Part shown: positions 938 through 27,127 of the stretch, piece after piece
How positions within the stretch are numbered: the stretch's first letter is position 1
Layout: every line of letters begins with the position of its first letter
NCBI GenBank assembly: GCA_965612865.1
Contig: CBFDTJ010000009.1
Span: 1 to 35,015 of the forward strand
Source: an uncultured bacterium
GTDB lineage: Bacteria > Caldisericota > Caldisericia > B22-G15
Reading direction: 5' to 3'
DNA length: 35,015 bases
Notes under the pieces: model-generated
The model's database searches: none
The model's input: the letters and a program-made list of their open reading frames with translations, nothing else
Told to the model about the DNA's origin: nothing
Program-made: the position numbers and the translations under genes

Positions 938-952
938 GAAAGGAGTGGTAGA

Positions 953-1435: not shown

Positions 1436-2025
1436 AAATAGAAAGAATAGTTGAAGAAATAAGGAAAGAAACAGAAGAGGAGATAAAAAAGATCCTTCTT
1501 TCATCTCAAAAGGAGATAGAGCTAATTGAAAAGGAAACAAAGGAAGAATTAGAACAGATTGAAGAGAAGTGGAATAAAATAAAAGCAAAGGAGCTTTCTT
1601 CTTTGAAAGAGAAAAACAAGAGTGAAATTGAAAAAGAAGTGGAAGCTCTAATACTTAAGAAAAAGAATGAAATTCTTAAAGACTTTAAAGAGTATGCCAA
1701 GGAAAAGCTAAAGCAGGAGAACGAAGAAACGCTGAAGGAATTCTTTTTAAAGGAGATAGAGATAAGCTCTGAAACTGGTAGAGAGAAGATAGTTATAGGA
1801 AAAGATTTTAAAAGTCTTTTTGATGAGGAATTTAAAAGAAAAATAAGAGAAACTGTAGAGAAAAAATTGGGACAAGAGGAACTTAAATTTGAAATTGGCA
1901 ACGAAACTAAAGTTGTAGGAGATGGTTTTGTTGTAGTCATTTCTCCTTTAAGAAAGTTAGAAGAGAAATGGAAAGAACTTCTGGTTGAATTACAGAAAAT
2001 TCTATTTTTAGAGGAAGAGAAGTGA
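1432..2025 (+). CDS. atpE: V/A-type ATP synthase subunit E
   Basis: 197 aa with charged coiled-coil N-terminus; lies between K and C with 4-nt overlaps on both sides. Confidence 0.8.
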   Translation: MKIERIVEEIRKETEEEIKKILLSSQKEIELIEKETKEELEQIEEKWNKIKAKELSSLKEKNKSEIEKEVEALILKKKNEILKDFKEYAKEKLKQENEETLKEFFLKEIEISSETGREKIVIGKDFKSLFDEEFKRKIRETVEKKLGQEELKFEIGNETKVVGDGFVVVISPLRKLEEKWKELLVELQKILFLEEEK

Positions 2026-2939
2026 ATTTAAAAGGCTGGAACTACCTTTCAGGAAAATCAGTGGTTCTAATGAGCAAGATTTTAAAGATTGAGGTAATGA
2101 AGAATTTTCTTTCCAATACGCTTGATGAATTTGTTTCAAATCTAAGAAGAATATATGAGATGGGGGAGGAGTATAAAGATTTTAACGAAATAATAAACTA
2201 TGACTGGCGAAAGAATTTGAACCTAATAAAGACCAAATCACCTGAGGATTTTATTTTTAGCTACTTCCACACTTCTACTCTTTTTCTCTCCATAAGAGGT
2301 GTGTTGAGTGAAAAAGAGCTTACATTAACTACCGCAGATATATCGATAAGTGAAATAAGAAATTACATTTATAAAGGTGTAGGAAAACTACCTGAAGATA
2401 TAAAACTTATTCTAAAAGAGTTAAAGAAGTACATCCAGGATGAGAAAAAGACAGAAATCTTTCTTATAAGAAAGGAAGTGGAAAGAGAACTGGAATTTGC
2501 AGAGAGAGATGAGTTTTTGAAGAGATTTCTTGAAATCAAGGTAGATCTTACAAATATTGTAAACTTTATAAGACATAAAGCTTTGAAGGAATCAGATTTT
2601 TACTATATTCCACATGGGACAATAAAACCTTCAACCTTTGATTCTTTTGAAAAATCGTCATTAGAATCCTTTATTGATTTCTCTCTTAGAAAGTATCCAT
2701 CCTTTCAGGTTGAAAGAAAAATGGAAGATATGCTTCTCTCTTTAGGAAAGATAAAGGACGAGTATCTAATAAAATATTTGAAGAAAGCTCAAGGCGTTGG
2801 TTTTGGCCCCTCTCTTCCTTTTGCCTATATGAACTTAAAACTTATGGAGTATAAAAATTTAAGAACAGTTTATATCGGGATAAAATATAATCTCCCAGAG
2901 AGCATGGTTATTCGGAGGTTGAGAAACATAAATGGATAA
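2022..2939 (+). CDS. atpC: V/A-type ATP synthase subunit C (d)
   Basis: VDLTNI and EYKNLRTVYIG...RRLR C-terminal signature; operon position; GTG start. Confidence 0.85.
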   Translation: MNLKGWNYLSGKSVVLMSKILKIEVMKNFLSNTLDEFVSNLRRIYEMGEEYKDFNEIINYDWRKNLNLIKTKSPEDFIFSYFHTSTLFLSIRGVLSEKELTLTTADISISEIRNYIYKGVGKLPEDIKLILKELKKYIQDEKKTEIFLIRKEVERELEFAERDEFLKRFLEIKVDLTNIVNFIRHKALKESDFYYIPHGTIKPSTFDSFEKSSLESFIDFSLRKYPSFQVERKMEDMLLSLGKIKDEYLIKYLKKAQGVGFGPSLPFAYMNLKLMEYKNLRTVYIGIKYNLPESMVIRRLRNING

Positions 2940-3252
2940 AATATGTTTTTTTGGTGATGAATCAATAGGTTTGATACTTAAGGGTCTTGGGATAGACGCT
3001 TTCATTGATGAAAATATAGAAGAATCCTTTCAGGATGCCTATAGGAAAAATCTCTATTCTCTTATTATAGTTTCTGAGGATCTAAAGGATAGAATTTTAC
3101 CTGTATACCTTGAGATGAGAAAGGAATTCCTTCCGGTAGTCATATTTCTTCCCACAAAGGGAAGAAGAGAGGAAGTAAGTTTTAAATATATAAGAAGGAT
3201 GATAGAGAAAGCAGTTGGAGTGGATATCCTTAAAAAGGGAGAAGAAGAATGA
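2932..3252 (+). CDS. atpF: V/A-type ATP synthase subunit F
   Basis: 106 aa; GD..GLG at the N-terminus and IEKAVGVDI at the C-terminus. Confidence 0.92.
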   Translation: MDKICFFGDESIGLILKGLGIDAFIDENIEESFQDAYRKNLYSLIIVSEDLKDRILPVYLEMRKEFLPVVIFLPTKGRREEVSFKYIRRMIEKAVGVDILKKGEEE

Positions 3253-5024
3253 AGAAAGGAAGAATAATTAAAGTAGCAGGCCCTTTGGTTGTTGCTAAGG
3301 GACTTGAAGGTGTAAAAATGTATGAAGTGGTCCTTGCTGGAGAGCAGGGACTGCTTGGAGAAGTAATTCAGATAAAGAGTGGAATGGTGTTTATTCAGGT
3401 TTATGAGGAGACAGAAGGTGTTGGTCCTGGAGATCCAGTTGTCCCTACAGGAGCACCTCTTTCTGTGGAATTAGGACCGGGTCTTATTGGAGCTATCTTT
3501 GATGGTGTTCAGAGACCTTTAAGTGTTATAAATCTCAGACATGGACCATTTATTGTTAGAGGAGTTAAAGAGAAAGCTCTTCCAAGAGATAAAGAATGGG
3601 AGTTTGAGCCGCTTGTAAAAGAAGGAGATGAGGTGGTAGAAGGAGATGTATTAGGCACAGTCAAGGAAACAGAAATTATTGTTCACAAGATACTTGTTCC
3701 CCCTGGGGTGAGTGGGAAAGTAGAGAAAGTTTTTTCAGGAAAGAAAAAAATTGAAGATACAGTAATCGTCCTAAAAACTGAAGATGGTAAAAAAGAGATA
3801 TCAATGCTTACAAAATGGTCTGTAAGAATCCCAAGACCTGTTAAAAAGAAGCTTCCACCTGATATTCCTCTTGTAACAGGGCAAAGAGTTATTGATACAT
3901 TCTTTCCTATAGCTAAGGGGGGAACAGCGTGCATCCCTGGTCCTTTTGGTTCTGGTAAAACTGTTACTCAGCATCAGTTATCCAAGTGGGCCGATGCAGA
4001 GATAGTTGTATATGTTGGGTGTGGTGAGAGAGGGAACGAGATGACAGAGGTGCTTATTGAGTTTCCTGAACTTAGGGACCCAAGGACAGGACGTCCTCTT
4101 ATGGAGAGAACAATCCTTATAGCTAATACATCAAATATGCCTGTTGCTGCAAGAGAAGCATCAGTATTTACAGGCATAACCCTTGCTGAATATTTTAGAG
4201 ATATGGGTTATAATGTTGCACTCATGGCAGATTCTACTTCTCGTTGGGCAGAAGCAATGAGAGAAATATCAGGAAGACTTGAGGAAATGCCTGGTGAGGA
4301 GGGATACCCTGCATACCTTGCTTCAAGAATTGCACAATTCTATGAGAGAGCCGGAAGAGTTGTTAATCTTGGAAAAGATGATAGAATTTCATCCTTATCT
4401 GTAATTGGTGCAGTTTCACCTCCTGGTGGCGATCTTTCAGACCCTGTAGTCCAATCCACATTGAGAGTTGTAAAGGTATTCTGGGGACTTGATGATACAC
4501 TTGCATCAAGAAGACATTTTCCTGCAATAAATTGGCTAACGAGTTATTCACTTTACACAAAGGACCTTGATCCACACTATGAAGAAAAGGTGGATAAAGA
4601 GTTCCCTCCTTTAAGAGAAAAAGCAATGGAATTACTGGAAAGGGAAGCTGAACTCGAGGAGATTGTTAGACTTGTGGGAATAGATGCTTTATCAGCGAAA
4701 GATAGACTTGTCCTTGAAGGAGCAAAATCCATAAGAGAAGATTTTCTTCACCAGAATGCTTATCATGAAGTCGATACATACTCTTCATTAAAGAAACAAT
4801 ACTTAATGCTTAAACTTATCCTGTTTTTCTATGACAAAAGTGTAGAGGCTCTACAGAAAGGTGTAGAATTGGACAGCATTATTGAGCTTCCTGTAAGAGT
4901 GGATATAGCCAGAGCAAAATATATACCTGAGGAAGAGATGGATGAAAGATTTGATAAATTGATTGAAAAAGTTGAGGAGAGTTTCAGATCTCTAACTGAA
5001 GAGAAGGAGGTTGTTAATGGCTAA
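3249..5024 (+). CDS. atpA: V/A-type ATP synthase subunit A (catalytic)
   Basis: P-loop [30 protein letters not shown]; 591 aa, no intein. Confidence 0.98.
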
Positions 5025-6414
5025 AGAGTATCTTACCACAAGTGAAATAGCAGGACCTCTAATGGTGGTTCAGGACATTAGTGGAGTAAAGTATGGGGAA
5101 CTTGTAGAAATAACACTTCCTTCCGGTGAAGAAAGAAGAGGAAAAGTTCTTGTTGCTGAAGAAAACAGAGCACTTTTGCAGCTATTTGAACCATCCTATG
5201 GACTTAACCCAAAAGAATGTAGAGTTAAGTTCACTGGAAGAGGACTTGAAGTTCCTGTATCAAAAGATATTCTTGGGAGAATATTTAATGGATTCGGTGA
5301 ACCTATAGATGGAGGACCTGACATTATTCCAGAGGACATGAGAGATATAAATGGAAATCCTATAAATCCATATGCAAGAGACTATCCAAACGAGTTTATT
5401 CAAACAGGTGTGTCAGCCATTGATGGTCTTAACACTCTGGTAAGAGGACAAAAACTGCCGATATTTTCTGGAGCAGGGCTTCCACATCCTCATCTTGCTG
5501 CTCAAATTGCAAGGCAGTCTAAAGTACTTAAGACAGGAGAAAAATTTGCAGTGGTTTTTGCTGCTATGGGTATCACCTTTGAAGAGGCAAATTTCTTCAT
5601 AACTGATTTAAAGAGAACAGGTGCAATAACAAAGGCAGTGCTCTTTATAAATCTTGCAAATAACCCGGTAATTGAGAGAATATCTCTTCCAAGAACAGCT
5701 CTTACAGTGGCAGAGTATCTTGCCTTTGACCTTGATATGCACGTACTTGTAATACTTTCAGATATGACAAACTACTGTGAGGCATTAAGAGAAATTTCTG
5801 CTGCAAGAAAGGAAGTTCCCGGAAGAAGAGGATATCCCGGATATATGTATACAGATCTTGCAACGATATACGAGAGAGCTGGAAGAATAAAAGGAAAGAA
5901 AGGATCTATAACTCAAATCCCTGTTGTAACAATGCCTGAAGATGATAAAACCCACCCGATACCTGATCTTACCGGATACATAACAGAGGGACAGATATTT
6001 CTTTCACGAGATCTTCATAAAAGAGGAATATATCCCCCAATTGACGTAAGACCGTCGCTTTCAAGACTTAAAGATAAAGGTATTGGAAAAGATAAAACAA
6101 GGGAAGACCATTCAGATCTTATGAATCAGTTATATGCAGCCTATGCGAGAGGAAAAGATGCCGAAGAACTTGCTACAATTCTTGGTGAGACTGCATTAAC
6201 ACCTGTTGATAGAATATTTGTAAAGTTTGCAAATAGATTTGAGAAAGAATTTATAAATCAGGGTGAGTATGAGAACAGAACTATTGAAGAAACACTGGAT
6301 ATAGGATGGAAGCTTCTATCCATGATCCCAATTCCTGAACTTAAGAGAGTAAGAGAAGAATACATAGAAAAGTATCTAAAGAGGTTTGTAGATGAAGATA
6401 AAAGCAAATCCTAA
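5017..6414 (+). CDS. atpB: V/A-type ATP synthase subunit B
   Basis: [40 protein letters not shown]. Start moved to ATG 5017, which follows SD aaggagg. Confidence 0.98.
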
Positions 6415-7018
6415 TAGAATGGTTCTCCTCCGCCTAAAGCGGAGGCTTAATATTGCAAGAAGAGGTCACAAACTCCTGAAAGATAAGCTGGAAGGGATGA
6501 TGAAAGATTTTATAAAAACTGCTAAAGAGTTTAGAGAAGATACAGAAATTGTTGATAGAGAGTATTTAAGGATTGAAGGTCTTTTTGCTCTTGCAGAAAG
6601 TGAAATGGGGAAAGAAACGATAAAGCTTTTATCCAAAAAAAGAGCAGATATAAGGTTAAAGCACGAGAAGAAAAATATAATGGGAGTAGTTGTTCCAGAA
6701 TTCAAACTTGATATAAGAGGAAAAGTCTTTGACTATCCAGTTAACATAACTACACCTGAATATGATTTTGGGATTCAAGGTTTTATAAGCTTCTTACCAA
6801 AACTTATCTCTCTTGCAGAAAAGATTAAAGCACTTGAGGAGCTATCAAGAGATATAGAAAAGACAAGAAGGAGAGTTAATGCCCTTGAATACATAATGAT
6901 ACCGTCTCTTGAAGAGACTATAAAGTATATAACAAATAAACTTGATGAGCTGGAAAGAGAATCTCACGCAAGGATTTCAAGAATTAAGGAGATAATAAGA
7001 GGGGAGGAAAAAAGGTAA
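6392..7018 (+). CDS. atpD: V/A-type ATP synthase subunit D
   Basis: PNRM..L...RGHKLLKDK and [10 protein letters not shown] signatures. Confidence 0.97.
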
Positions 7019-7070: not shown

Positions 7071-8282
7071 CTAACCTCTGAATTTTTCTTTATCTACAAG
7101 CTTTCCATGACTTATGATGTATTCTGGTTCATCATGGTTTCTTAAGGCTTCAAGAACATTCTCCTCTTTTAGAACAACGAGATGTGCGTCATTTCCTTCT
7201 TTTAAACCAAAGTTTTTAATCCCCATAGCTTCCGCAGCGTCAACTGTTATCATATCATAGAGTTTTTCCATATCTTCACTGGTTGTCATCCAGAGTATAT
7301 GAGATGAAAGGAACGCTACTTCCAGCATGTTATTTCTACCGTAAGGATAGTAAGCATCTGATATATCATCCTGACCAAGAGCTACAAGAGCACCCTCTTC
7401 TATCATTTCTTTAACTCTTGCATGAAGAGGTCCTGTGTGGGGATCGCTTATAACACCCATCTTTGCCTTCTTTAGAATGGCAACGAGTTTCATAAAGTAT
7501 GGTTTTGGATATAAAGCCATTGCTCTTGCATGATGAGCAAGAACCCTTCCTTCCCACCCCTCTTTTATTGCTTTTAAGGCTAACATTTCCAGTGTTCTTA
7601 ATCCAGGATCACCGGCATCATCTACAAGCATAGATACAGGTTTATCAAATTCTTTAGCGATTTCAAACATTTTGTCAATATGTTCCTGTTCATCTTCCTC
7701 AGTGAATTCAATCCATGGAATTCCACCAACTACATCTGCACCCAATTTCATTGCTTCTCTCACAAGCTCATAGGCTCCAGGTTCCCTTACCACTCCATCC
7801 TGTGGAAAGGCTACCACTTCCACATCAACAATTCCTTTAAACTCGTCTCTTGCTTTAATAAGTGCTTTTATTCCCTCAAGTTTTGCTTTATTATCTACAT
7901 CAGCAAATGCTCTTATATGAGTAACACCATTTAATGCTGCCATCCTAAGAGCCTTTCTTACATTTGGAAGTATCCACTTTTCGTCATACTTTTCCTTTAT
8001 CTTGGCTGCAAGTTCTATGGCTGTCATGGCTTTGCCCATATCTTCTCCATGATAATCCTTTAGAGCCTCTTCTGTCATCATCATCAGGGTATAAACCTTA
8101 CACAGGTGAAGATGAGCATTTACAAATGATTCAGTTACAAGTTTTCCTTTTGCATCAATTTCTGTAGAACCCTTTTCATCAATCTTTTCTCTTATGGTTT
8201 TGATTTTTCCGTCAAGAATTCCAATGTCAACAAGACCTTTAAGTTTTCTTGTTTTCGCGTTTCTAATTACTATATCATACAT
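7071..8282 (-). CDS. Cytosine deaminase (CodA)-like amidohydrolase, substrate unknown
   Basis: HLH metal motif, AFPQDG, DVVGGIP, GQDD..D.YYPYG; 403 aa; SD ggagg. Confidence 0.85.
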   Translation of the reverse strand: MYDIVIRNAKTRKLKGLVDIGILDGKIKTIREKIDEKGSTEIDAKGKLVTESFVNAHLHLCKVYTLMMMTEEALKDYHGEDMGKAMTAIELAAKIKEKYDEKWILPNVRKALRMAALNGVTHIRAFADVDNKAKLEGIKALIKARDEFKGIVDVEVVAFPQDGVVREPGAYELVREAMKLGADVVGGIPWIEFTEEDEQEHIDKMFEIAKEFDKPVSMLVDDAGDPGLRTLEMLALKAIKEGWEGRVLAHHARAMALYPKPYFMKLVAILKKAKMGVISDPHTGPLHARVKEMIEEGALVALGQDDISDAYYPYGRNNMLEVAFLSSHILWMTTSEDMEKLYDMITVDAAEAMGIKNFGLKEGNDAHLVVLKEENVLEALRNHDEPEYIISHGKLVDKEKFRG

Positions 8283-8297
8283 AAGAACCTCCTTTTA

Positions 8298-8783
8298 TTA
8301 TTTAAATACCTTCCCTTCCTTCAAATATTTTTGAGCAAGTTTTGCTCCTTCAAGGATGGTCTCATATCCAGTACACCTACAGAGGTGATTTTTGAGAGCC
8401 TTAAGTATCTCTTCCTCAGTAGCATCTATGTTTTTGTTAAACAGGGCATAAAGCTCCAGTATAATAGCAGGACTACAGAAACCGCACTGAACTGCACCAG
8501 CGTCTATAAGAGCCTGTTGAATTGGGTGGAGTTTTTTACCATCAGTTAATCCTTCAATGGTGATTACCTCTGCCCCTTCCAGTTTTTTGGCTGAGTATAT
8601 ACAACTTTTTACAGCCTCTCCATTTACTACTACAACACATGCACCGCATGTGGCATCATCACAACCTCTTTTCGCACCTGTAAGACTAAGGTAATCTCTC
8701 AGTATATCCAGAAGTTTTTCCCATCCTTCTATCTCCACACTTACAGGTTTTCCATTTACTGTGAAGTTAATCTTCTCTCCCAT
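8298..8783 (-). CDS. 2x[2Fe-2S] small subunit of a xanthine dehydrogenase/CoxS-family molybdenum hydroxylase
   Basis: GCDDATCGAC...SC and QCGFC...CRCTGY cysteine motifs. Confidence 0.95.
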   Translation of the reverse strand: MGEKINFTVNGKPVSVEIEGWEKLLDILRDYLSLTGAKRGCDDATCGACVVVVNGEAVKSCIYSAKKLEGAEVITIEGLTDGKKLHPIQQALIDAGAVQCGFCSPAIILELYALFNKNIDATEEEILKALKNHLCRCTGYETILEGAKLAQKYLKEGKVFK

Positions 8784-8797
8784 TTGTATTCCTCCTA

Positions 8798-11140
8798 TTA
8801 AGAAACTTCTGTTTTTTGTTTCTTTTTCTCTTCAATGGCCTTTTTGATTAAGTCTGGCGTGATCGGAATACGATAAAAGTCTACTCCTATAGCATCGTAT
8901 ATTGCATTGAGTATTGCTGGGGCAACTCCTATAACAGGGTGCTCTCCTATTCCTCTTGCTCCGAAAGGTCCTATTTCATCTGGTGTTTCAACAAATTCAA
9001 CAGTTTGTTTCTTTGGTGTATCTTCTATTGTAGGGAATCTATAAGTTTTGAAATGAGGATTTATAATTCTTCCATCTTTATCAAATTTCAGCTCTTCATA
9101 GAGTGTTGCACCAATTCCCATCATAACGCCACCAACCACCTGACCTCTTATCTGAACAGGATTTATCACCTGACCTACATCAAAAGCAGATGCAAAATGG
9201 TCTACAATTATCTCTCCAGTTTTTTTATCAATTCTTATCTCACATCCCTGAGCACCAAAGGTATAATCAACACCCATATTTCCCTGACCTGTCTCAGGAT
9301 CCGGAAGTGAGTAACGTGGGAGTCTTGCATCAGCTGTTGCTTGAAGAACCTCTCCCACTGTTATTCCATCATCATGCATGTATCCTCTGACTATTTCAGG
9401 TACAGAGATCCTTACGCTTGGATCTGATTTTAAAAATACATACTCACCATCATAATCAAGCATATCTATGTCACATCTTAGAGCATATGCTGCATTTTGT
9501 TTTAACTTCTGAATGAGTCTTTCTGCTGCTCTAACTATGGCCCTTCCTCCCTGTACAGTAAACATGGAACCAATGGTTTGCCATTCCCATGGAGAAAACT
9601 GGGTGTCTATTTCTGTGTATACTCTCACCTTTTCTGGTGGAATTTTTAAAGCTTCTGCTGTTACTTGTTTAACTACTGTTCTTAAACCCTGTCCTACCTC
9701 GGCACCACCCATGTTAATTGAGACACTACCATCTATGTTGAATTTGATATAGCAACCTTTGGAGGAATTTGGTGCTCCTTTAGGTCCTTTAACTATAGCT
9801 GCAAATCCCCTTCCATAAAAGTATCTTTCATCTTCCTTTGGTTTTGGTTTGGAAAATATAGCCTTTTTTACAACATCTGTACACTTCTTAACATCTCCGT
9901 GCATCTTCCACATTTTTTCTCCAAGTGCATTCTCTTTTCCTTCACCAAGATAGTTCTTTTCTCTCAGCTCAAACTCATCCATATTAAGTTTTCTTGCCAG
10001 AATGCTCATGAGCCTTTCAAGTGCAAAGTGGGAATATTGATAACCATAAGCTCTATAGGCGCCTACAGGTGGTGTGTTTGTGTAAACTGAGTATGCTTCA
10101 AGATAACAGTTTGGAACCTCATAAGGTCCTGTTGAAGAATGAGCAGCGCCCTGCGCAATATTTACTCCTGTATCAGCATAAGCACCAGTGGAGTGATATA
10201 CTGTAGCCTTCATTGCTACAAGCTTACCATCTTTCTTTGCTCCTATTTTCATTCTGATTCTCATACCATGTGCAATAACAGTGCTTGTAAAGTCTTCCTT
10301 ACGAGATGCAACCCACTTTACAGGTCTTCCTGGTACAAAACTTGCTATATAGGCTACTGTCTGTTCAATAATTACATCAGATTTATAGCCAAAACATCCT
10401 CCAATTTCCGGAATGTGGACTCTCACATCAGAAACAGGCACTCCATAGGTTCTTGCAATATCCTCTCTTATTATGAAAGGACAGATAGACGAAGACCAGA
10501 TTTCAATGGTCCCATCCTCTTTAAACCATGCAATCGTACCATGTGGCTCTATTGCCGCTGAGGAACCAAAGGGATAAATAAATTCTCCTTCTACAACCAC
10601 ATCTGCTTCTTTAAATCCTTTCTCTACATCCCCTTTCTTAAGCTCATAATGCATAGCTACATTAGTTTTTGGTATTGGTTTGTAGGCTGGTAGGTGCCAG
10701 TATTCTCCATTTTTTTCGTGAATAAGAACTGCATCCTCTTTCATAGCTTCTAGTGCATCTGTGTAAACTGGAAGTTTCTCATACTCAACCTTTATCTTCT
10801 TTACAGCCTGTTTAGCATAATAGGGATTTTCTGCAATAACTGCAGCTACTGGTTCTCCAATATATCTTACTTTATCCACTGCCATTGGGTAACGATCTCT
10901 TATGCAATCTCCATAAACAACTTTACACCCCTGCCCTGTAACTACCTTAACAACACCTGGAGATTTCTCTGCTTCAGATGTATCAATGGAGAGAATCTTT
11001 GCGTGAGCATACGGTGGAGTTAGTATAGCAGCATAAAGCATTTCAGGTAGTTTAATATCATCAAGAAAAACCGCCTTACCTGTTACTTTTGATACTGCAT
11101 CTGGTCTCTGAACATTTTTTCCTAAGTACTTAAATTCCAA
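8798..11140 (-). CDS. Molybdopterin-binding large subunit, xanthine dehydrogenase/aldehyde oxidoreductase family
   Basis: KVTGKA, GGCFGYK, AYRAYG, EVGQG, GQVVGG, GARGIGE; TTG start behind aaggaggtg. Confidence 0.93.
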   Translation of the reverse strand: MEFKYLGKNVQRPDAVSKVTGKAVFLDDIKLPEMLYAAILTPPYAHAKILSIDTSEAEKSPGVVKVVTGQGCKVVYGDCIRDRYPMAVDKVRYIGEPVAAVIAENPYYAKQAVKKIKVEYEKLPVYTDALEAMKEDAVLIHEKNGEYWHLPAYKPIPKTNVAMHYELKKGDVEKGFKEADVVVEGEFIYPFGSSAAIEPHGTIAWFKEDGTIEIWSSSICPFIIREDIARTYGVPVSDVRVHIPEIGGCFGYKSDVIIEQTVAYIASFVPGRPVKWVASRKEDFTSTVIAHGMRIRMKIGAKKDGKLVAMKATVYHSTGAYADTGVNIAQGAAHSSTGPYEVPNCYLEAYSVYTNTPPVGAYRAYGYQYSHFALERLMSILARKLNMDEFELREKNYLGEGKENALGEKMWKMHGDVKKCTDVVKKAIFSKPKPKEDERYFYGRGFAAIVKGPKGAPNSSKGCYIKFNIDGSVSINMGGAEVGQGLRTVVKQVTAEALKIPPEKVRVYTEIDTQFSPWEWQTIGSMFTVQGGRAIVRAAERLIQKLKQNAAYALRCDIDMLDYDGEYVFLKSDPSVRISVPEIVRGYMHDDGITVGEVLQATADARLPRYSLPDPETGQGNMGVDYTFGAQGCEIRIDKKTGEIIVDHFASAFDVGQVINPVQIRGQVVGGVMMGIGATLYEELKFDKDGRIINPHFKTYRFPTIEDTPKKQTVEFVETPDEIGPFGARGIGEHPVIGVAPAILNAIYDAIGVDFYRIPITPDLIKKAIEEKKKQKTEVS

Positions 11141-11154
11141 CTAAATCACCTCCT

Positions 11155-12120
11155 TTAAGAGGATAGAATCTCTATTATTTCTTCAAATTCAAAATCTATC
11201 CTCTTTTCTTTCTCTACAACGCTTAAATCTTTTATCATAATTTCCCCCCTGTTCCATGTAATCATTTTATTTTTAGACTTGTTACTTGCTATTAATTTTA
11301 CCGCATTGAAACCAAAAATGGAAGCAAGTTTTCTACTAAAGTATGTAGGTTTTCCACCTCTCTGAATATATCCAAGAACTGTCACCCTTACTTCAGAATG
11401 AGGGAGAAGCCTGGAGATTTTCTCTCCAATCGTATATGATGATCCTACCCCCTCAGCCATAACGATTATGTATGATTTTTTACCCTTCTCTATTCCTTTT
11501 TTAAGAACATTAATTACTTTTTTTAAATTAAATGGTATCTCTGGAATAAGAACTATTTCAGCACCTGATGCTATGCCAACCTCAAGGGCAATAAAGCCAT
11601 GTTTTCTTCCCATAACTTCTATTATAAAAATTCTTTCATGAGAGGTGGCTGTGTCTCTTATTTTGTCAATAGCGTCAACGGCCGTATTTACTGCTGTATC
11701 AAAACCTATGGTTTCCTCTGTGCCATACACATCATTATCGATTGATGCCGGAATACCAATTACATTGATATCACTTTCTCTAGAAATTCTTAATCCTGCG
11801 TTAAGAGAGCCTTCCCCACCAATAATAATGAGGTTTTCTATACCTCTATTTATTAGATTTTTAATAGCCGTTTCCCTGATTTTTCTATCTTTAAATTCAG
11901 GAAACCTTTGAGATTTTAAAATTGTACCACCCTTGTTTATTATTCCACTCATGTCTCTTGAGGTGAGTTTAATGATTTCATTCTCTATTAACCCTTTCCA
12001 TCCTCGCATTATTCCAAAAACATCAAAACCCTCAAGTATTGCTGTTCTTACAACAGCTCTTATACATGCATTCATACCAGGAGCATCTCCTCCTGGGGTT
12101 ACAATTCCAATTTTAGACAT
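11155..12120 (-). CDS. pfkA: ATP-dependent 6-phosphofructokinase
   Basis: GGDAPGMN, GGEGS, PASIDND, EVMGR, LGYIQRGG. Gly at position 104 and a non-Lys residue at 124 fit the ATP-dependent type. Confidence 0.95.
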   Translation of the reverse strand: MSKIGIVTPGGDAPGMNACIRAVVRTAILEGFDVFGIMRGWKGLIENEIIKLTSRDMSGIINKGGTILKSQRFPEFKDRKIRETAIKNLINRGIENLIIIGGEGSLNAGLRISRESDINVIGIPASIDNDVYGTEETIGFDTAVNTAVDAIDKIRDTATSHERIFIIEVMGRKHGFIALEVGIASGAEIVLIPEIPFNLKKVINVLKKGIEKGKKSYIIVMAEGVGSSYTIGEKISRLLPHSEVRVTVLGYIQRGGKPTYFSRKLASIFGFNAVKLIASNKSKNKMITWNRGEIMIKDLSVVEKEKRIDFEFEEIIEILSS

Positions 12121-12754
12121 GAATTACAATATTCTTGAAGTTCTCTACAAGCTTTTTAACTTCCCTTGGAGTTTCGTCTGGATCTGGTTTAATAAGTGCA
12201 AAAAGAATATTTGTACTTTTAACAAGACCAATGTGTCTCAATCCAGAAGGGTTGAAGGTCTTTTTGGCAAGTTCCATCAGTTTATCAAGATCTTTCAGAT
12301 TTTTGTACATAGTTAGAAACCTGCTCTCACCCAATACAACTTCTCCTTTTTCAAGCTCTTTTGCTTCATCTATGTCTGGTCCAAGGAAATAGTAATATTT
12401 TTTAATTATATGAACATCTGTGTTTATCCGCACCTTTGATCTTAAGACTATATAAAGCCTATCGTGTTTTCTTGTCAGGAGTGATATTGGAAAATATAGA
12501 AGACTTTGGCGTGGTAGTAGTGTGAGGGTTAACTCTAATTTTTTAATAGCACTATCATTTAATTCGTAGTGAGCTCTGAAGCCAGCGTATCCTCCAATCC
12601 AGACATACGTTTTGTCTTTAATTCTCAAATTCTTTTCAAAACCCTGAACATATTTTTTCATTAAGAGAAGGTTGATTTTTCTGCCTTGAAAAAATTGGAG
12701 GGTTATTACCCCTCCGATTACAACAAGGATAATTATAATTTGAGACTGAGTCAT
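12113..12754 (-). CDS. Hypothetical protein with a single N-terminal TM anchor; possible CCDC47/DUF1682-like fold
   Basis: 213-aa ORF overlapping both neighbours; hydrophobic residues about 6-23. The family call is by-eye only. Confidence 0.75.
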   Translation of the reverse strand: MTQSQIIIILVVIGGVITLQFFQGRKINLLLMKKYVQGFEKNLRIKDKTYVWIGGYAGFRAHYELNDSAIKKLELTLTLLPRQSLLYFPISLLTRKHDRLYIVLRSKVRINTDVHIIKKYYYFLGPDIDEAKELEKGEVVLGESRFLTMYKNLKDLDKLMELAKKTFNPSGLRHIGLVKSTNILFALIKPDPDETPREVKKLVENFKNIVIHV

Positions 12755-13053
12755 AAAGTTTTCTCCTCTCTTTTTCCACCCACAACAAGAACCTCTGTAA
12801 AACCTGCTTTATTTAAGGATTCCACTATCTTTTTTGCCAGGGTGTTTGTTATATAGGATGCAAGAAATAGGTTGAAGGGTCGATATGCCATGGGATAAAG
12901 GTCTTTCATATGAATTATTATTCGAGTGAAATCAATCTCTATCTCATCAATAAACTCACCTGTTATTAAATCAAGTCCCGTTGTGGGTTCTTCAATTGTA
13001 GATAAAACCAATTTTATCTTTCTTATAGTTTCCCTATCTCCTTTATACCTCAT
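12751..13053 (-). CDS. Small DUF59/MIP18 (FeS_assembly_P)-like protein without Cys
   Basis: LSTIEEPTTGLDLI..EFIDEIEI resembles the LxxVxDPExxxxIV start of DUF59; 4-nt overlaps on both sides. Confidence 0.6.
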   Translation of the reverse strand: MRYKGDRETIRKIKLVLSTIEEPTTGLDLITGEFIDEIEIDFTRIIIHMKDLYPMAYRPFNLFLASYITNTLAKKIVESLNKAGFTEVLVVGGKREEKTL

Positions 13054-14003
13054 ATAAGATAATTATTATACAGCTCTTTCAATTCTTCAATACCACGTGG
13101 TGAATGCTCAAGGAGGGGAATTTCCTTTATTTGTATTCCTCTAAATTCTTCTCTCATCTTTTTTAAGACCTCTTCCTGCTCTTTTATCTTGCCTTTTATA
13201 CCCTCAGGAGGCTTTTTACACTGAATTACTTTATTTAAAAATATAGTTCTTAGTTTTATCTTGAATTCTGAAAGGGACTCGGATATTCTTTTTGTTTCAA
13301 AAAGAGCAAGTTCCTCTGGCATTGTTACTACATTAACTGTTGTATTATCTGATGAAAAGAAGTTTCTCAGTTCTTCCATTTCAGCTCTATACCGAACCAA
13401 TTCCTGCATTACATCATCTTCCTTTTCATCAGAAGTAAGTACTACCGTTTCTCCTTCTATTTTAGCTTCAAATCTCCCCTTCACATTTTCTACCATCTTT
13501 CTTCTATCAAGAATTCTTTTTCTCATTTTTATAAGTCTATCTGTCCATAAAAGGGAGAGTTTTGGCATTGCAAAAACTCTTATTGTAATTCCTGTAGGGG
13601 GTGTATCAAACACTATTGTATCGAATTCTTTCAGTTTTATAAACCTCTTTATAGCTTCAAGAACTGCATACTCTTCAATACCGGGAGAATGTCTCAAAAT
13701 ATCAAAGTATCTATCAAGGTTGAAGGTAGTAAGGTATCTATAAGTGTTTTTCATCTTATATGCAAGCTCATTCAGGTATTCTTTTATCATTTTCTCTATA
13801 TCCACTTCCACAGCTGAGAGATTATCGCTGATCTTTTTTATCTTGTTGGAGAGCGTAGAGTTAAAAGCATCTCCAAGATTATGAGCTGGATCTAAAGATA
13901 CGACGAGTACATTTCCATTATCTAAGGAAGTGCCTACACCAAAGGAAGCTGCAATAGTTGTCTTCCCGACTCCCCCTTTTCCAAGGAAAAAGTATGTTTT
14001 CAT
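13050..14003 (-). CDS. ArsA/Get3 (TRC40)-family ATPase, single domain
   Basis: Deviant Walker A GKGGVGKTT, SLDPAHNL, PGIEE, switch II DTPPTG, LNKV. Confidence 0.93.
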   Translation of the reverse strand: MKTYFFLGKGGVGKTTIAASFGVGTSLDNGNVLVVSLDPAHNLGDAFNSTLSNKIKKISDNLSAVEVDIEKMIKEYLNELAYKMKNTYRYLTTFNLDRYFDILRHSPGIEEYAVLEAIKRFIKLKEFDTIVFDTPPTGITIRVFAMPKLSLLWTDRLIKMRKRILDRRKMVENVKGRFEAKIEGETVVLTSDEKEDDVMQELVRYRAEMEELRNFFSSDNTTVNVVTMPEELALFETKRISESLSEFKIKLRTIFLNKVIQCKKPPEGIKGKIKEQEEVLKKMREEFRGIQIKEIPLLEHSPRGIEELKELYNNYLI

Positions 14004-14012: not shown

Positions 14013-14291
14013 CTAATCAATGTCAAATGTTCCTGCAGTTTCTGCAAAGACATCGTCAAGATTTTTACTTCTTAGCATCATTACATATATTTCCCTCTGC
14101 ATATATGGAAGAAGCCTTAAGACAAGACCAGTTGGAGGAGATGGGATTCCAGATAAAAAACCCATTGTTAAAAGTGCAAAAACATTTTCTGTTTCCTCCA
14201 ACTCTTTCTCAATGAGAGAGACTGAAGCTTCTTTTAAACCTTCATCAATACCACCAAAGAATTTTCTAAGGAGATCGGAGAGCTTCTTCAT
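14013..14291 (-). CDS. Small cstA-associated protein (cory-CC-star-like, without terminal CC)
   Basis: 92 aa; ENVFALL...GIPSPP....RLLPY core; starts 2 nt after the cstA stop, SD gaggtg. Confidence 0.75.
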   Translation of the reverse strand: MKKLSDLLRKFFGGIDEGLKEASVSLIEKELEETENVFALLTMGFLSGIPSPPTGLVLRLLPYMQREIYVMMLRSKNLDDVFAETAGTFDID

Positions 14292-14293: not shown

Positions 14294-16033
14294 CTATTTC
14301 ACCTCTGCTTCAGGTTTTGGTCCTTTTCTGAATGCTCCCAAGAAATCTCCTATGAGGATAAAGTTAAGGATAATCATTATTATTGTAAATATTGCCACAG
14401 GATATTTGGTTGTTGCTGCTTTGATAGCTGGGACTGCAACGAAGAGGTACCATATCAATGCTACAGTAACTGTAACCCATAAGAAGAGTGCAGGGATAAG
14501 AACTGCATATTGCCATACTTTCTTTGCCTTCTGTACATTTCTAACCCATACCGCTGCTGTAATCATTGCAATGGATGCAAGCATCTGGTTTGCACCAGCA
14601 AATCCTGGCCAGAGGGCACCAAGAGTTCCTCCCCAGACAATAAGCATTCCAAGCCCTGCAGCGATAATTGAGCCAACCCATTTATTTGCGATGAATTTAT
14701 AGAAACCTTCACTTGTCTTCTTCACAGGTTCCCATATCTCACCCCATGCAAACCTTGCAAGTCTGTTGGAGGTATCAAGGGTTGTAAGGATGAATGCTGA
14801 AACCCAGAGTCCTCCAAATGTTACTCCAAGTTTATAGGGGATTCCTATTGAACCAACAAGTTTTCCATATGAGTGGGTGAATATACCCACCTTACCAACT
14901 GTAGATCCAATAACTCCTGCTCCATACTTTCCAATAAGTGCCGGAGATGCAAGTTTTGCCATGTCTCCACCTGCTTCTTTAAGGACAGTCATTCCAAAAG
15001 CGGCTATAGAGAGAACGACTATTGTGGATAAGAAACCTTCAGTAAACATACCACCGTAGCCAACAAGAAGTCCACTTAACTCATTATCCAGCTGTTTGGA
15101 GCTTGTACCTGAAGCAACTATTGAATGGAAACCAGACAGAGCTCCGCAGGCTATAATTAATGGAACAGTTGGCCAGAACGGTGAGGGCTGACCACTTATC
15201 AAGTTAGGAGAAAATACTGTAAATGCAGGCCATGAGAATCCCTTGAAGGCAATAAGAGCTGCAAGACCACCGACTATAAGTCCAAACCACAGAATGTATG
15301 CATTTAGATAATCTCTTGGCTGAAGTAGTATCCATACAGGAAGTGATGCAGCGATTATTATGTAGATAAACTGAATCACATACCAGGCTTGCTTACTTGC
15401 AATCTTAATAAACGGGAATTTGAATCCTATAACTATAGCAAGTATAAGGAGTATTACTCCTATAATAGAAGCAGCACTGAAGTTCATCTTTGTTCTGTAC
15501 ATTATATAACCTTCAATCATAGCTACAATGATGAAGAGAATCGATGCTGTTGCAATTTCTGGAGTGGATGATGCAAGACCGGCGAAAACGTTCATAAACG
15601 CTGCTATAACAAGAAGAAGTGCAAAATATACAAAGAGCTCAAAAGCATACTTGGTCTTTGGTGTCATAAGCTTACCAGAAATCCACTGAACCGATTTACC
15701 ATCATATCTTACCGAAGCCATTAAAGCAAGATAGTCATGAACACTACCAATAAAAAGGTTACCAAACCAAATCCAGAGAATACTTGGTAACCACCCCCAA
15801 ACCATGGCAAGCGCAGGTCCTACTATTGGACCAGCCCCGGCAATAGAAGCGAAATGATGTCCATATAGAACGAACTTATTTGCAGGCATGTAATCTACAT
15901 TATCCCTTAATTTTACAGCAGGGGTTGGTCTGTTAGGATCTGCCTTTACTACTTCCTTCTCCAATCTTCTACCATAGACCATGTAACCTATGATGTAAAT
16001 AGCCCCTCCAATAATTGCTAAAAGTGCGGTCAT
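14294..16033 (-). CDS. cstA: Carbon starvation protein A-family transporter
   Basis: GHHFASIAGAGPIVGP, LPVWILLQPRDY, IACGALSGFH, GYGGMFTEG, TTLDT, ANQMLA; polytopic. Confidence 0.96.
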   Translation of the reverse strand: MTALLAIIGGAIYIIGYMVYGRRLEKEVVKADPNRPTPAVKLRDNVDYMPANKFVLYGHHFASIAGAGPIVGPALAMVWGWLPSILWIWFGNLFIGSVHDYLALMASVRYDGKSVQWISGKLMTPKTKYAFELFVYFALLLVIAAFMNVFAGLASSTPEIATASILFIIVAMIEGYIMYRTKMNFSAASIIGVILLILAIVIGFKFPFIKIASKQAWYVIQFIYIIIAASLPVWILLQPRDYLNAYILWFGLIVGGLAALIAFKGFSWPAFTVFSPNLISGQPSPFWPTVPLIIACGALSGFHSIVASGTSSKQLDNELSGLLVGYGGMFTEGFLSTIVVLSIAAFGMTVLKEAGGDMAKLASPALIGKYGAGVIGSTVGKVGIFTHSYGKLVGSIGIPYKLGVTFGGLWVSAFILTTLDTSNRLARFAWGEIWEPVKKTSEGFYKFIANKWVGSIIAAGLGMLIVWGGTLGALWPGFAGANQMLASIAMITAAVWVRNVQKAKKVWQYAVLIPALFLWVTVTVALIWYLFVAVPAIKAATTKYPVAIFTIIMIILNFILIGDFLGAFRKGPKPEAEVK

Positions 16034-16743: not shown

Positions 16744-17937
16744 ATGTTTGATATTACAGAACAGTTAAAGATAATTAAAAAGGGAACCTTAGAGATAATC
16801 AACGAAGAGGAGCTTGTAGAGAAATTAAAAAGAGGTAAACCTCTTGTTGTAAAACTTGGTGTTGATCCTACTGCTCCAGATATACATCTTGGACACACTG
16901 TAGTTTTGAATAAATTGAGAGATTTTCAAAGACTTGGTCATCATGTGGTACTTATTATAGGAAGTGGAACTGCAATAATAGGTGATCCATCTGGTAGAGA
17001 TAAGGCAAGAAGTGGTCTTACTCCAGAACAAATTGAAAGGAATGCTAGATATTATAGCAAGCAGGCGTTTAAAATTCTGGATAAAGAAAAGACAGAGATA
17101 CGATACAATGGTGAGTGGCTTCTTCCTTTAAAAATGAGAGAGATTGTGGAACTTGCCTCCCATTTTACAATAGCAAGGATACTTGAAAGAGATGATTTTT
17201 TTAACAGGTATAAAAAGGGAGTTCCCATATATCTACATGAGTTTCTATATCCTGTCATGCAAGCATATGATTCAGTAGTAATAAAGGCAGATGTTGAGTT
17301 AGGAGGAAGCGATCAAAAATTTAATCTCCTGTTTGGTAGAGACCTTCAGAGAGATGTGGGTCAGGAACCTCAGATTGCAATTCTTATGCCAATACTTAGA
17401 GGAATTGATGGAGAAAAGAGAATGGGGAAGAGTCTTGGAAATTACATTGGAATAAATGATGCTCCAGAGGAGATGTTTGGAAAAGTTATGAGTATTCCAG
17501 ACCACCTTATAATTGAGTATTTTGAGCTTCTTACAGATAGAGATCCAGACGAGATTGAAGAATTTAAAGAAAGAATGGAGAAAGGAGAAAATCCCAGAGA
17601 TTTTAAGCTTCTTCTGGCTGAAGAGATTGTTTCAAGATTTCATTCAAAAGAGGATGCCAAAAGAGCAAGAGATAGTTTTATAAAAGTTTTCAGTAAAAAG
17701 GAGATACCAGAAGATATTCCCACTGTTGAAATTGTAGAGGACAAGATCAATCTTGTGGAGCTCTTAAAGGATCAAAATCTTGTATCTTCAAAAAGTGAAG
17801 CAAGAAGATTAATTTTGCAGGGGGGTATATCTATTGATGGAAAGAAGGTGAAACCTGAAGAGATTATGATAGATGTAAAGAATGGCATGATTATAAAAGT
17901 TGGGAAGAGAAGGTTTTTGAAGGTGATTAAGAAATGA
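16744..17937 (+). CDS. tyrS: Tyrosine-tRNA ligase
   Basis: GVDPTAPDIHLGH, YPVMQAYD, GGSDQ, RMGKS, C-terminal S4 domain. Confidence 0.98.
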   Translation: MFDITEQLKIIKKGTLEIINEEELVEKLKRGKPLVVKLGVDPTAPDIHLGHTVVLNKLRDFQRLGHHVVLIIGSGTAIIGDPSGRDKARSGLTPEQIERNARYYSKQAFKILDKEKTEIRYNGEWLLPLKMREIVELASHFTIARILERDDFFNRYKKGVPIYLHEFLYPVMQAYDSVVIKADVELGGSDQKFNLLFGRDLQRDVGQEPQIAILMPILRGIDGEKRMGKSLGNYIGINDAPEEMFGKVMSIPDHLIIEYFELLTDRDPDEIEEFKERMEKGENPRDFKLLLAEEIVSRFHSKEDAKRARDSFIKVFSKKEIPEDIPTVEIVEDKINLVELLKDQNLVSSKSEARRLILQGGISIDGKKVKPEEIMIDVKNGMIIKVGKRRFLKVIKK

Positions 17938-19205
17938 TAAAGGGTCCAAAGGGATGTCCTGATATCCTTCCAGGCAAAACAGAGGCACTGTATATTGTAA
18001 TTTCCTTCATAAGAGAAACTGTTGAAAATTTTGGTTATAGAGAGATTATAACCCCGGTTTTCGAACATAGAGAAATTTTTGAAAGAAGTGTTGGAGAGAA
18101 TACTGATATTGTGGAGAAAGAAATGTACACATTTAAAGATAAAGGAGGAAGAGATCTTTCCTTAAGACCTGAGGGCACAGCACCTGTGGTGAGGGCGTAT
18201 ATTGAGCATGGTATGAAATCTCTTCCGCAACCTGTGAAACTCTACTATTTTGGACCAATGTTCAGGTATGAGAGACCTCAAATGGGAAGACAAAGGCAGT
18301 TTTTCCATTTTGGAATTGAGGCTTTAGGTGATGAGAGTCCATATCTTGATGTGGAAGTCATAAATTTGGCTCTTATCATTTTAAAGAAACTTGGACTTAA
18401 AAACCTGAGCGTAAAGATAAACAGCATTGGATGTAAAAAATGTAGACCGAAATATAGAGAGGCCCTGAAAGAGTATCTAAAGCCAAGGTATGAGAAGCTA
18501 TGTGATGATTGTAAGAGAAGATTTTATTCCAATCCTCTAAGAATTCTTGATTGCAAAAAGGAATCATGTAAAAGAGAAACAGAAAATGCCCCAAGAATTA
18601 TAGATTTTCTGTGTGATGAATGCAGGGAGCATTTTGAGAAAGTTCTTGAACTCCTTGATATTCTCGGTGTTAAGTATGAGATTGACAATAGGCTTGTAAG
18701 AGGGCTTGACTACTATACAAGAACTGTATTTGAAATTCAATCAGGTGATTTGGGAGCTCAGAATGCAGTTCTTGGTGGTGGTAGATACGACGATCTTTCT
18801 GAAAGTATGGGAGGTAAGAAAACACCTGGTGTTGGATTTGCCATGGGGATAGAGAGATTAATGATTCTTCTTGAGAAAACTGGAAATTTGCCTTACAGAG
18901 AAAGAAAAACAATTTATATACTTCCCATTTCTGAAGCAGATTATATAGATGCATTCAAGTTATATATGGATTTAGGAGAAGAAGGAAGCAGTGTATTTAT
19001 TCCCTATAAACCTAAAAAACTAAAATCCGGTGTTACTGATGCAGTAAAGAGAAATGCATCTTATCTAATAATAGTGGGTGGAGAAGAAAGAGAAAGAGGA
19101 AATGTAATCTTGAAGGATTTATCAAGAAAAGTTCAGGAGGAGATTTCTCTCACAGATATCAAGGAAAGAATTAAACAATTGGAGGAGAGGAATGGAAAGA
19201 AGTAA
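17934..19205 (+). CDS. hisS: Histidine-tRNA ligase
   Basis: LRPEGTA, FRYERPQ, LVRGLDYYT, GGGRYD. Confidence 0.98.
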   Translation: MIKGPKGCPDILPGKTEALYIVISFIRETVENFGYREIITPVFEHREIFERSVGENTDIVEKEMYTFKDKGGRDLSLRPEGTAPVVRAYIEHGMKSLPQPVKLYYFGPMFRYERPQMGRQRQFFHFGIEALGDESPYLDVEVINLALIILKKLGLKNLSVKINSIGCKKCRPKYREALKEYLKPRYEKLCDDCKRRFYSNPLRILDCKKESCKRETENAPRIIDFLCDECREHFEKVLELLDILGVKYEIDNRLVRGLDYYTRTVFEIQSGDLGAQNAVLGGGRYDDLSESMGGKKTPGVGFAMGIERLMILLEKTGNLPYRERKTIYILPISEADYIDAFKLYMDLGEEGSSVFIPYKPKKLKSGVTDAVKRNASYLIIVGGEERERGNVILKDLSRKVQEEISLTDIKERIKQLEERNGKK

Positions 19206-20940
19206 GTATTGCGGTGAAGTAAATAAAAGTGACGTTGGTAAAAGACTAACACTTTTTGGATGGGTAAAGAATATAAGAGACCTTGGCGGTTTGACTTTTA
19301 TTGAATTAAGAGATAGAGCTGGTTTTGTTCAAATAGTTTTTGATCCAGAAAAGGATAAGGATCTTCACAAAAGAATCAAAGGAGTCGGTGTGGAGTGGGT
19401 TCTTAAAGTTGTTGGAACTGTCAGGGAAAGACCAAAAGAAAACATAAATGATAAAATTCCCACAGGTGAGGTAGAAGTTGTTGCTGAAGAGATGGAAGTG
19501 TTGAATAGATCAGAAGCGCTTCCATTTGAAATTGATTCGAGGAGTGAAATAAATGAGCTTTTAAGACTTAAGTATAGATATCTTGATATAAGAAGAGAAT
19601 TTATGAAGAGAAACATATATATTAGATCAAAAGCCACAAATGTTGTGAGGAATTTTCTAATAAGTGAGGGATTCTGGGAGGTGGAAACGCCTATACTCAC
19701 CAAGAGTACTCCTGAAGGAGCAAGAGATTTTCTTGTTCCTTCAAGAATATATCCTGGAAAATTCTATGCTCTTCCCCAATCTCCTCAGCTCTTCAAACAG
19801 ATACTCATGATTTCAGGTATAGACAGATACTTCCAGATTGCAAAGTGCTTTAGAGATGAAGATTTAAGAGCAGATAGACAACCAGAGTTTACACAAATTG
19901 ACATAGAGATGTCCTTTATCTCCGAAGATGACATTATGGATGTAGTTGAAAGAATGATCAAAAAAGTTTTTGAAGAAACATTGAATATTAGTATTCCGAT
20001 TCCTTTAAGGAGAATATCTTATTCTGAAGCGATGGAGAAGTATGGCTCAGATAAACCTGATCTGAGATTCTCACTTCCTATAACTGATTTTACAGATATT
20101 TTTTTAGATTCAGATTTTAAGTTGTTTAAAAATATAATAAAAGAAGGTGGAAGAATCAAAGGGTTTGTAATAAAAAATAGACTTCTATCAAGAAAAGAGT
20201 TAAAGGAGATAGAGGAAAAAATTAAAGACATTGGACTATCTGGTGTGATAGGTTATTCCATCTCTGATAAAGTTCCTTCAATTCTCACAAAGTTTATAAA
20301 TGAGGAGCAAAGGAACAAACTTAGAAATTTAGCCAGTGAAGGTGATACTATTCTATTGTTTGCAGGAAGGGACAATGAGTTTCTGGAATTACTTGGGAAG
20401 GTAAGATTATATCTTGGAGAGCTTTTTGGCATGATAGAAAAGGAAAAATTTGAGCTTCTATGGGTGACAAATTTCCCTCTCTTTGAATGGAATGAAGAGG
20501 AGAAAAGATGGGATTCAAAACACCATCCCTTTACTTCCCCTTCTCCTGAAACTGTTGAGTTACTGGATAAAGATCCTGGAAAAGTTTATTCCCGTGCCTA
20601 CGATTTTGTCATAAATGGCTATGAAATTGGTGGTGGAAGTATAAGAATTCATGATATGAATTTACAGAAGAAGATATTCAATCTTTTGGGTTACTCTGAT
20701 GAGGAGGTAGAGAATAGATTTGAGTTTTTCCTTCGTGCCTTAAGATATGGTGCTCCTCCTCATGGTGGTATTGCTCTCGGGCTTGATAGGTTAGTCATGC
20801 TCCTTTCAGGAGCTTCCAGTTTACGAGATGTGATTCCTTTTCCAAAAACACAGAAAGCCATATGCCCTCTGACGTCGGCACCCAGCGATGTTCAGGAGGA
20901 ACAACTCAAGGAATTAAAGATAAAGATTGAAGAGAAGTGA
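19192..20940 (+). CDS. aspS: Aspartate-tRNA ligase
   Basis: PEGARDF, LPQSPQLFKQ, FRDEDLRADRQPEFTQID, HHPFT, PPHGGIALGLDR. Confidence 0.98.
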   Translation: MERSKYCGEVNKSDVGKRLTLFGWVKNIRDLGGLTFIELRDRAGFVQIVFDPEKDKDLHKRIKGVGVEWVLKVVGTVRERPKENINDKIPTGEVEVVAEEMEVLNRSEALPFEIDSRSEINELLRLKYRYLDIRREFMKRNIYIRSKATNVVRNFLISEGFWEVETPILTKSTPEGARDFLVPSRIYPGKFYALPQSPQLFKQILMISGIDRYFQIAKCFRDEDLRADRQPEFTQIDIEMSFISEDDIMDVVERMIKKVFEETLNISIPIPLRRISYSEAMEKYGSDKPDLRFSLPITDFTDIFLDSDFKLFKNIIKEGGRIKGFVIKNRLLSRKELKEIEEKIKDIGLSGVIGYSISDKVPSILTKFINEEQRNKLRNLASEGDTILLFAGRDNEFLELLGKVRLYLGELFGMIEKEKFELLWVTNFPLFEWNEEEKRWDSKHHPFTSPSPETVELLDKDPGKVYSRAYDFVINGYEIGGGSIRIHDMNLQKKIFNLLGYSDEEVENRFEFFLRALRYGAPPHGGIALGLDRLVMLLSGASSLRDVIPFPKTQKAICPLTSAPSDVQEEQLKELKIKIEEK

Positions 20941-20955
20941 AAGGAAATGTATAAT
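20927..20955 (+). promoter_or_regulatory. Internal sigma70 promoter, probably giving a leaderless cca mRNA
   Basis: TTGAAG (20927-32), 17-bp spacer, TATAAT (20950-55); 7 nt separate the -10 box from ATG 20963. Confidence 0.6.
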
Positions 20956-20962
20956 TTAATTG

Positions 20963-27077: not shown

Positions 27078-27102
27078 TTTTTCTCACCTTCCTTTAAAAC
27101 AG

Positions 27103-27127
27103 AAAAAGGGGGAGAAACTCCCCCTTT
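27103..27127 (-). terminator. Stem-loop between dctP and dctQ (partial terminator or mRNA stabiliser)
   Basis: Minus strand AAAGGGGGAG-TTT-CTCCCCCTTTTT, 3 nt after the dctP stop. Confidence 0.8.

Follow-up and report, generated by a model that had tools for sequence, protein, structure and literature searches.

What does a single-pass membrane protein that has been likened to the eukaryotic translocon component CCDC47 do in a bacterial transporter operon? The window, a 35,015-nucleotide stretch of DNA from an uncultured Caldisericota bacterium, carries in tight succession cstA, cstX (DUF7990), an ATPase gene, a DUF59-like gene and the gene in question, cstY. Neighbors in this run overlap or lie at most nine bases apart (Table 1).

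Table 1. Positions of the cstY features and of the operon genes upstream of it, in window coordinates.
Feature	Position	Strand	Description
cstA	14294..16033	(-)	carbon-starvation transporter of 579 aa (peptide/pyruvate); opens the operon; PF02554 E 7.7e-127
cstX	14013..14291	(-)	small protein of 92 aa assigned to DUF7990; cory-CC-star match weak; predicted to form two long helices on either side of a PSPP turn
ArsA/Get3-family ATPase	13050..14003	(-)	single-domain; passes the TIGR00345 cut-off; intact P-loop and switch motifs; a lone Cys and no CxxC
DUF59/FeS_assembly_P-like gene	12751..13053	(-)	100 aa; weak match, E 0.0057; optional operon member
cstY	12113..12754	(-)	213-aa single-pass protein; N-terminal membrane helix and predicted cytoplasmic alpha/beta CCDC47-fold domain; latch tail absent
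cstY membrane helix	12689..12739, residues about 6-22	(-)	GRKIN directly after; from hydropathy and the positive-inside rule
cstY conserved core	12449..12538, residues 73-102	(-)	strand, PRQ/H, hydrophobic helix 85-95, D98; commonest Pfam CCDC47 match, profile ~74-124
cstY terminal amphipathic helix	12122..12172	(-)	structural match ends at ctCCDC47 residue 366

The reading frame described in the initial annotation holds up: cstY starts with an ATG codon served by a GAGGAG ribosome-binding site in the window sequence, and its product has only one hydrophobic segment, at the N terminus (residues ~4-22; 19-residue hydropathy up to 2.29). The membrane helix begins within the first six residues, leaving no luminal domain ahead of it. 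All six motifs that had been quoted, including HDRLYI, SRFLTMY, LRHIGL and NILFALIKP, are found, at residues 21, 73, 97, 144, 172 and 182, and the terminal amphipathic helix is borne out at residues 195-211 (hydrophobic moment 1.76). The proposed location beside a Get3-family ATPase stands only in part, in that the operon does encode a Get3-like ATPase, but two genes upstream, with the DUF59-like gene between. Within the start of cstY (12697-12715, minus strand) lies a terminator-like hairpin followed by its T run, probably a by-product of the coding sequence. Promoter-like sites are uninformative, with 37 found against 28.6 ± 5.9 in shuffles.

Operons of this kind have been described before. 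According to the accessible text of Castillo and Saier (2010; PMC2963123), they combine CstA with CstX, a protein of ~90 amino acids, and with a single-domain ArsA homologue of ~320 amino acids (ArsA cluster 14), and five archaea also have CstY, a single-helix protein of ~210 amino acids. The same text proposes that the ATPase energizes CstA via CstX, with CstY a non-essential auxiliary, and reports a duplicated cstX in Thermococcus kodakarensis and a cstY without ATPase in Hyperthermus. We identify the window gene as CstY because its size, topology and position agree with this account. Compared by description, the two share a length of ~210 amino acids, one membrane helix, and cstA, cstX and single-domain ArsA neighbors. 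The Thermococcus duplication of cstX and the existence of three-gene operons lacking cstY are also common to both studies; here, two tandem cstX paralogues occur in eight Thermococcus-group loci (L016, L028, L029, L030, L033, L034, L035 and L037). Whereas the 2010 CstY came from five archaea, with no fold given in the accessible text, the present gene is bacterial, has bacterial relatives, and belongs to a family of 257 clusters with a predicted CCDC47 fold. The gene family and its operon are already known by name; the CCDC47-fold assignment and the link to TtfA discussed below appear to be unpublished, and no CstY-CCDC47 link in print was found in the literature searched, most subscription journals and supplements lying outside that search.

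The 257 clusters, defined at 50% identity, come from an exhaustive profile search; a search among 544 candidates had 60 homologues at E≤1e-3. Of the clusters, 150 were listed, 149 of them new. The alignment used for the counts below (A2, n = 129) holds the window protein, ten proteins from the 544-candidate search (one also present in the exhaustive search) and 118 of the 149 new ones; 31 rows that were fragments, partial matches, or apparent frameshifts or fusions were excluded. Residue numbers count Met1, which the alignments and the model omit, so that model numbers are one lower. Family members are 194-240 amino acids long (median 215). The N-terminal membrane helix is present in 126 of the 129, with a second hydrophobic segment in only six, and in all 129 there are more Lys and Arg residues after the helix than before it; by the positive-inside rule, the large domain is therefore predicted to be cytoplasmic. 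This domain is basic, with a net charge of at least +5 in 101/129 homologues. The features singled out in the initial annotation, namely GxxxN after the helix, RQ or RH, and a downstream D, are conserved (G24 in 116, N28 in 114, R82 in 123, Q/H83 in 116, with Q in 71 and H in 45, and D98 in 127), as are G54 (128), G58 (127), P81 (125), P89 (126) and H115 (119).

The nearest named relative, at 88% identity, is from an uncultured Caldisericota bacterium, and other relatives occur in Synergistota, Dehalococcoidia and Brevinematia. Homologues with 33-44% identity hold the same operon position in Thermococcus and Desulfurococcales. Copies from Caldisericota, Synergistota and Brevinematia form one supported group in an unrooted tree.

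The operon context is retained across these lineages. Among the best 80 of 107 genome loci, counting only those with enough upstream DNA, cstY is accompanied by the ATPase gene in 71/72, by cstX in 68/69 and by cstA in 65/66; the sole exception, L080, has a shortened copy, and cstA is inverted in eight Desulfurococcales loci. A divergent subfamily was represented by the best 80 of 275 metagenome loci, which are partly redundant, and the 37 with 3 kb on both sides include cstA in every case and cstX and the ATPase gene in 36 each. At L114:4081-6642, cstY comes directly after a divergent cstA, and neither cstX nor an ATPase gene was detected within the 6-kb flanks. In the host phylum (81 genomes), cstY is found in 23 genomes, spanning 8/24 genera, and cstX in 28; cstY and cstX share a contig in 23/23. 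Five genomes of this phylum (L082-L086) have a second, divergent three-gene cstA-cstX-ATPase operon that lacks cstY. In three of the five cstA itself lies beside cstX-ATPase, and in two there is a CstA-sized open reading frame at the same place. Thus, with cstX and the ATPase gene present in the absence of cstY, CstA modules can evidently run without CstY. The cstY-less operon lies near a response-regulator-like gene in L082 and L083. In the phylum of Thermococcus, 79 of 114 genomes carry cstY. Tree distances of the four operon proteins correlate at 0.83-0.89 over 58 loci, values expected of any operon and obtained with no control gene.

An open reading frame of DUF59-like size lies between the ATPase gene and cstY in 32/73 loci. 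Among the copies compared, which include those of the window and of L047, L048, L055 and L056, the CxxC is kept in Archaeoglobi, and no Cys occurs in the window copy or in the Thermococcus copies listed. The ATPase scores 223 bits with TIGR00345 against a cut-off of 135, and far under the arsenical-pump models. In the PDB it matches ARSA1 and the Get3/TRC40 proteins of archaea and eukaryotes best, with an E of 5.5e-45 for 3zq6 versus 4.2e-27 for arsenite ArsA. A CxxC of any kind is present in only 2/58 copies of the ATPase; at the position of CEFC in 3zq6, the window copy reads PEGI. Arsenite ArsA binds arsenite through Cys ligands. With zero or one Cys in 46/58 copies, arsenite binding by the operon ATPase is therefore unlikely, and an arsenic-resistance role was rejected for this single-domain protein, which has one Cys and falls far under the arsenical ArsA cut-offs. 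Judged from its sequence, the ATPase appears to be Get3-like, which is not to say a proven Get3.

The AlphaFold2 model of CstY (56 sequences) has a pLDDT of 93.3 and a pTM of 0.87. At E≤0.001, Foldseek matched this model to only four PDB entries, 7tm3_4 (E 1.8e-7, TM 0.72), 9i78_4 (E 1.4e-6, TM 0.70), 6t84, which is TtfA (E 2.9e-4, TM 0.33), and 6w6l_7 (E 9.1e-4, TM 0.56). A second, independent structure aligner compared the model with 48,161 representative chains. In this comparison 7tut_4 aligns over 208/212 residues (Z 17.7, rmsd 2.8, chain range 135-396) and 9i78_4 over 206 (Z 15.3, rmsd 3.2, chain range 76-366); TtfA is the third match (Z 9.6, rmsd 3.8, 149 aligned), and the remaining chains score 6.6 or lower. 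The accessible text of PMC12572126 describes CCDC47 as docked in 9I78 in the segments 76-370, 371-417 and 417-447, with the latch helices in 371-447. We take 9i78_4 to be CCDC47 because its chain range fits the first of these segments, and the CstY match therefore spans the membrane helix and the globular domain and stops just before the tail. The matching chains of 7TM3, 7TUT and 6W6L are inferred to be CCDC47 as well, from their origin in multipass translocon entries and from the same match. The initial annotation's proposal of a CCDC47-like protein thus comes through structural comparison intact, with CCDC47 chains as the best matches by a wide margin.

The next match, TtfA (MSMEG_0736), is a cofactor of the mycobacterial transporter MmpL3. 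As described in the part of PMC6593404 consulted, it combines an N-terminal helix with a cytoplasmic domain, and co-purification of MmpL3 requires its residues 1-205, which also suffice for it; the excerpted review PMC7458404 treats direct TtfA-MmpL3 contact as unproven and cites the TtfA structure as an atypical fold. CstY resembles TtfA (6T84) in having an N-terminal membrane helix and a cytoplasmic domain, within a length close to the ~205 essential TtfA residues. However, the match is weaker than that to CCDC47, identity is 11-12%, and the transporter family is different. TtfA is an essential protein, but some CstA modules have no CstY; TtfA is found in mycolate producers with MmpL3, whereas the nearest named relative of the window CstY is from Caldisericota and its neighbor is CstA.

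We propose, with a probability of roughly 0.55 on our analysis, that CstY serves the CstA transporter of its own operon as a dedicated accessory subunit, and is not a general part of the translocon. This role seems the most likely because both studied proteins of the fold are anchored helpers of multipass membrane proteins, and because CstY matches the essential part of TtfA in size and build, comes after cstA at nearly every locus, persists where the ATPase has been lost, and occurs in only a minority of the host-phylum genomes. The constancy of CstA as a partner favors a helper dedicated to the transporter over a general PAT-like machine, and the L114 locus, with cstA and cstY only, together with the Hyperthermus cstY that lacks an ATPase, points to CstA as the protein with which CstY associates. 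Under this proposal, the membrane helix of CstY and its hydrophobic helix 85-95 might pack against CstA, or against CstA plus CstX, in the membrane. The cytoplasmic domain could then offer a docking surface and so hold the large transporter in an assembled, working state, much as TtfA serves MmpL3; the Get3-like ATPase would act on this complex by way of CstX.

A different division of labor is conceivable, though we consider it rather unlikely: CstY, CstX and the Get3-like ATPase might form a client-dedicated biogenesis relay, in which the ATPase would shield hydrophobic segments and CstY would act only transiently during insertion or folding of CstA (or CstX). The closest fold to CstY is that of a biogenesis factor, CCDC47, and the ATPase is nearer to Get3/TRC40 than to arsenite ArsA, with too few Cys residues to make arsenite binding likely. 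However, 3zq6 has a CxxC that is missing from the ATPase, the coiled coil by which CCDC47 extends to the ribosome exit tunnel (as given in the accessible text of PMC7505659) has no counterpart in CstY, and the cstA-cstY pair persists without the ATPase in L114. We rank this relay second, after the accessory-subunit role.

Whether the likeness of CstY to CCDC47 reflects common ancestry depends also on sequence. Identity between the two is 8-13%. The window CstY has no Pfam match at E≤1, and profile searches of PDB sequences with CstY found no CCDC47 chain at E≤10, the sole match being unrelated (E 0.31). Among its homologues, PF07946 (CCDC47) matches 17/56 at E≤1; in the larger set it is the top family, matching 43/129 at E≤0.1 (best 6.2e-5), with 3/129 for the next family, and is the only one that recurs. 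Of 21 homologues inspected, 17 match PF07946, all below the curated cut-off of 27.7 bits (best 20.6 bits). The matches are collinear over the post-helix and RQ...D regions, such that residues 6-109 in one example correspond to profile positions 5-122, and residues 72-201 in another to 80-200. Language-model features rank the CCDC47 cluster first among Pfam-named sets (0.78), which is a lead only. Because the structural match, including the membrane helix, stands 11 Z units over unrelated chains, and because profile comparison arrives at the same family, model and sequences together indicate that CstY is very probably a true homologue of CCDC47, likely by common descent. Convergent evolution towards a common, membrane-anchored alpha/beta fold would be compatible with the low identity, with the sub-threshold Pfam scores, and with the partial matches (Z 5-6.6) of type III secretion chaperones and other alpha/beta proteins to the model. 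Nonetheless, we judge it improbable, given a match that takes in 208 of 212 residues and that CCDC47 comes first by structure, by profile across 129 homologues and, as a lead, by language-model features.

CCDC47 (calumin; PF07946, formerly DUF1682) belongs, as a subunit, to the PAT complex and to the multipass and SND3 translocons. The accessible text of PMC7505659 describes a luminal domain, a conserved, positively charged C-terminal coiled coil that is wedged between Sec61 and the ribosome and reaches the exit tunnel, and a globular domain that touches eL6 and H25. Like CCDC47, CstY has a lone membrane helix and, after it, a globular domain that is predicted to be cytoplasmic and to have the CCDC47 fold; the weak collinear Pfam signal over GxxxN and RQ...D also connects the two. 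In contrast to CCDC47, CstY has no luminal domain before the helix, a domain ~50 residues shorter (212 versus 135-396), no C-terminal latch or coiled coil and no recognized Asterix, and it is bound to one transporter operon. A search for Asterix, the obligate partner of CCDC47, in the bacterium's own genome (87.6% complete) gave one PF03669 match, at E 0.39, below the cut-off and at a level also reached in 4/14 control genomes. The CstX model, which is poor overall (pTM 0.41), has no Foldseek match at E≤0.001, and only generic single-helix matches (best Z 6.2) with Asterix absent among those listed.

The charged C-terminal helix of CCDC47, reported as missing in the initial annotation, is indeed absent, as judged from the end of the structural match and from homologue tails. 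No more than nine residues follow position 208 in 115/129 homologues, and five do so in the window protein; the longest tail has 36 residues, and in no case does the tail form a long basic helix. Such a helix is likewise missing from eight longer proteins inspected by eye, six of which had been excluded from A2. As weak further evidence, no longer or tailed forms (421-2000 aa) were found at E≤10 among 7,994 candidates. A latch encoded separately downstream of cstY was ruled out, since pfkA overlaps the cstY stop codon by eight bases. In one protein of 323 aa, P0101, CstY seems to be joined to the C-terminal portion of an ArsA-type ATPase; this single case is possibly an assembly or frameshift artefact. 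Because CstY ends where the latch helices of CCDC47 begin, it falls outside the PAT complex, even though the two have a core in common. It is very unlikely that CstY works at SecY as a prokaryotic PAT subunit, a translocon factor that would help many multipass proteins and whose proximity to cstA is incidental: the fold match does cover the membrane helix and the globular domain, the part that in eukaryotes touches the ribosome at eL6/H25, the domain is basic, and the gene is widespread in the phylum of Thermococcus, but the distribution in the host phylum is patchy, cstY is almost never apart from cstA, and the latch is lacking.

Two published statements, in the excerpts of their sources available, hold that prokaryotes have no PAT complex. 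The assignment of a predicted CCDC47 fold to a family in archaea and bacteria contradicts them, and 257 clusters with a CCDC47 core alter the picture that they give. It also provides CstY, unexplained since 2010, with a predicted fold, and TtfA, published as an atypical fold, likely joins the same superfamily. Archaea of the Thermococcus type would offer a small system with the globular domain of CCDC47, no latch, and Get3-like ATPases beside CstA. More tentatively, CstY, CstX and the ATPase could represent a prokaryotic, client-dedicated assembly kit, with CstY the tail-less ancestral core of eukaryotic CCDC47 and the latch a later gain, so that CCDC47, CstY and TtfA would make up one superfamily of membrane-anchored helpers of multipass proteins.

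Two cstY paralogues, often in tandem, are present in 27 of the 80 metagenome loci, a partly redundant set (L087, L094, L100, L115, L128, L130-L135, L137-L140, L143, L145, L150, L154, L157-L163 and L165), and are 25-42% identical in seven pairs compared. Such pairing hints at a CstY dimer.

Downstream of cstY, the operon continues without gaps (window 7071-12120) into pfkA and genes for a molybdenum hydroxylase large subunit, a 2Fe-2S subunit and an amidohydrolase, and it ends at a strong terminator-like hairpin at 7051-7024. The molybdenum enzyme directly follows cstY in L002, L008, L009 and L011; pfkA was seen at this place only in the window and in L001. The association with a molybdenum enzyme may hint at the substrate of this CstA. 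Neighboring genes, at 74-7018, 16744-25303 and 25306-34955, include a V/A-type ATP synthase operon, Tyr, His and Asp tRNA ligases, a CBS/poly(A)-polymerase-family protein, an HflX-like GTPase, a TRAP transporter, a 2-oxoacid dehydrogenase cluster with a sigma-54 activator, and a tyrosine recombinase.
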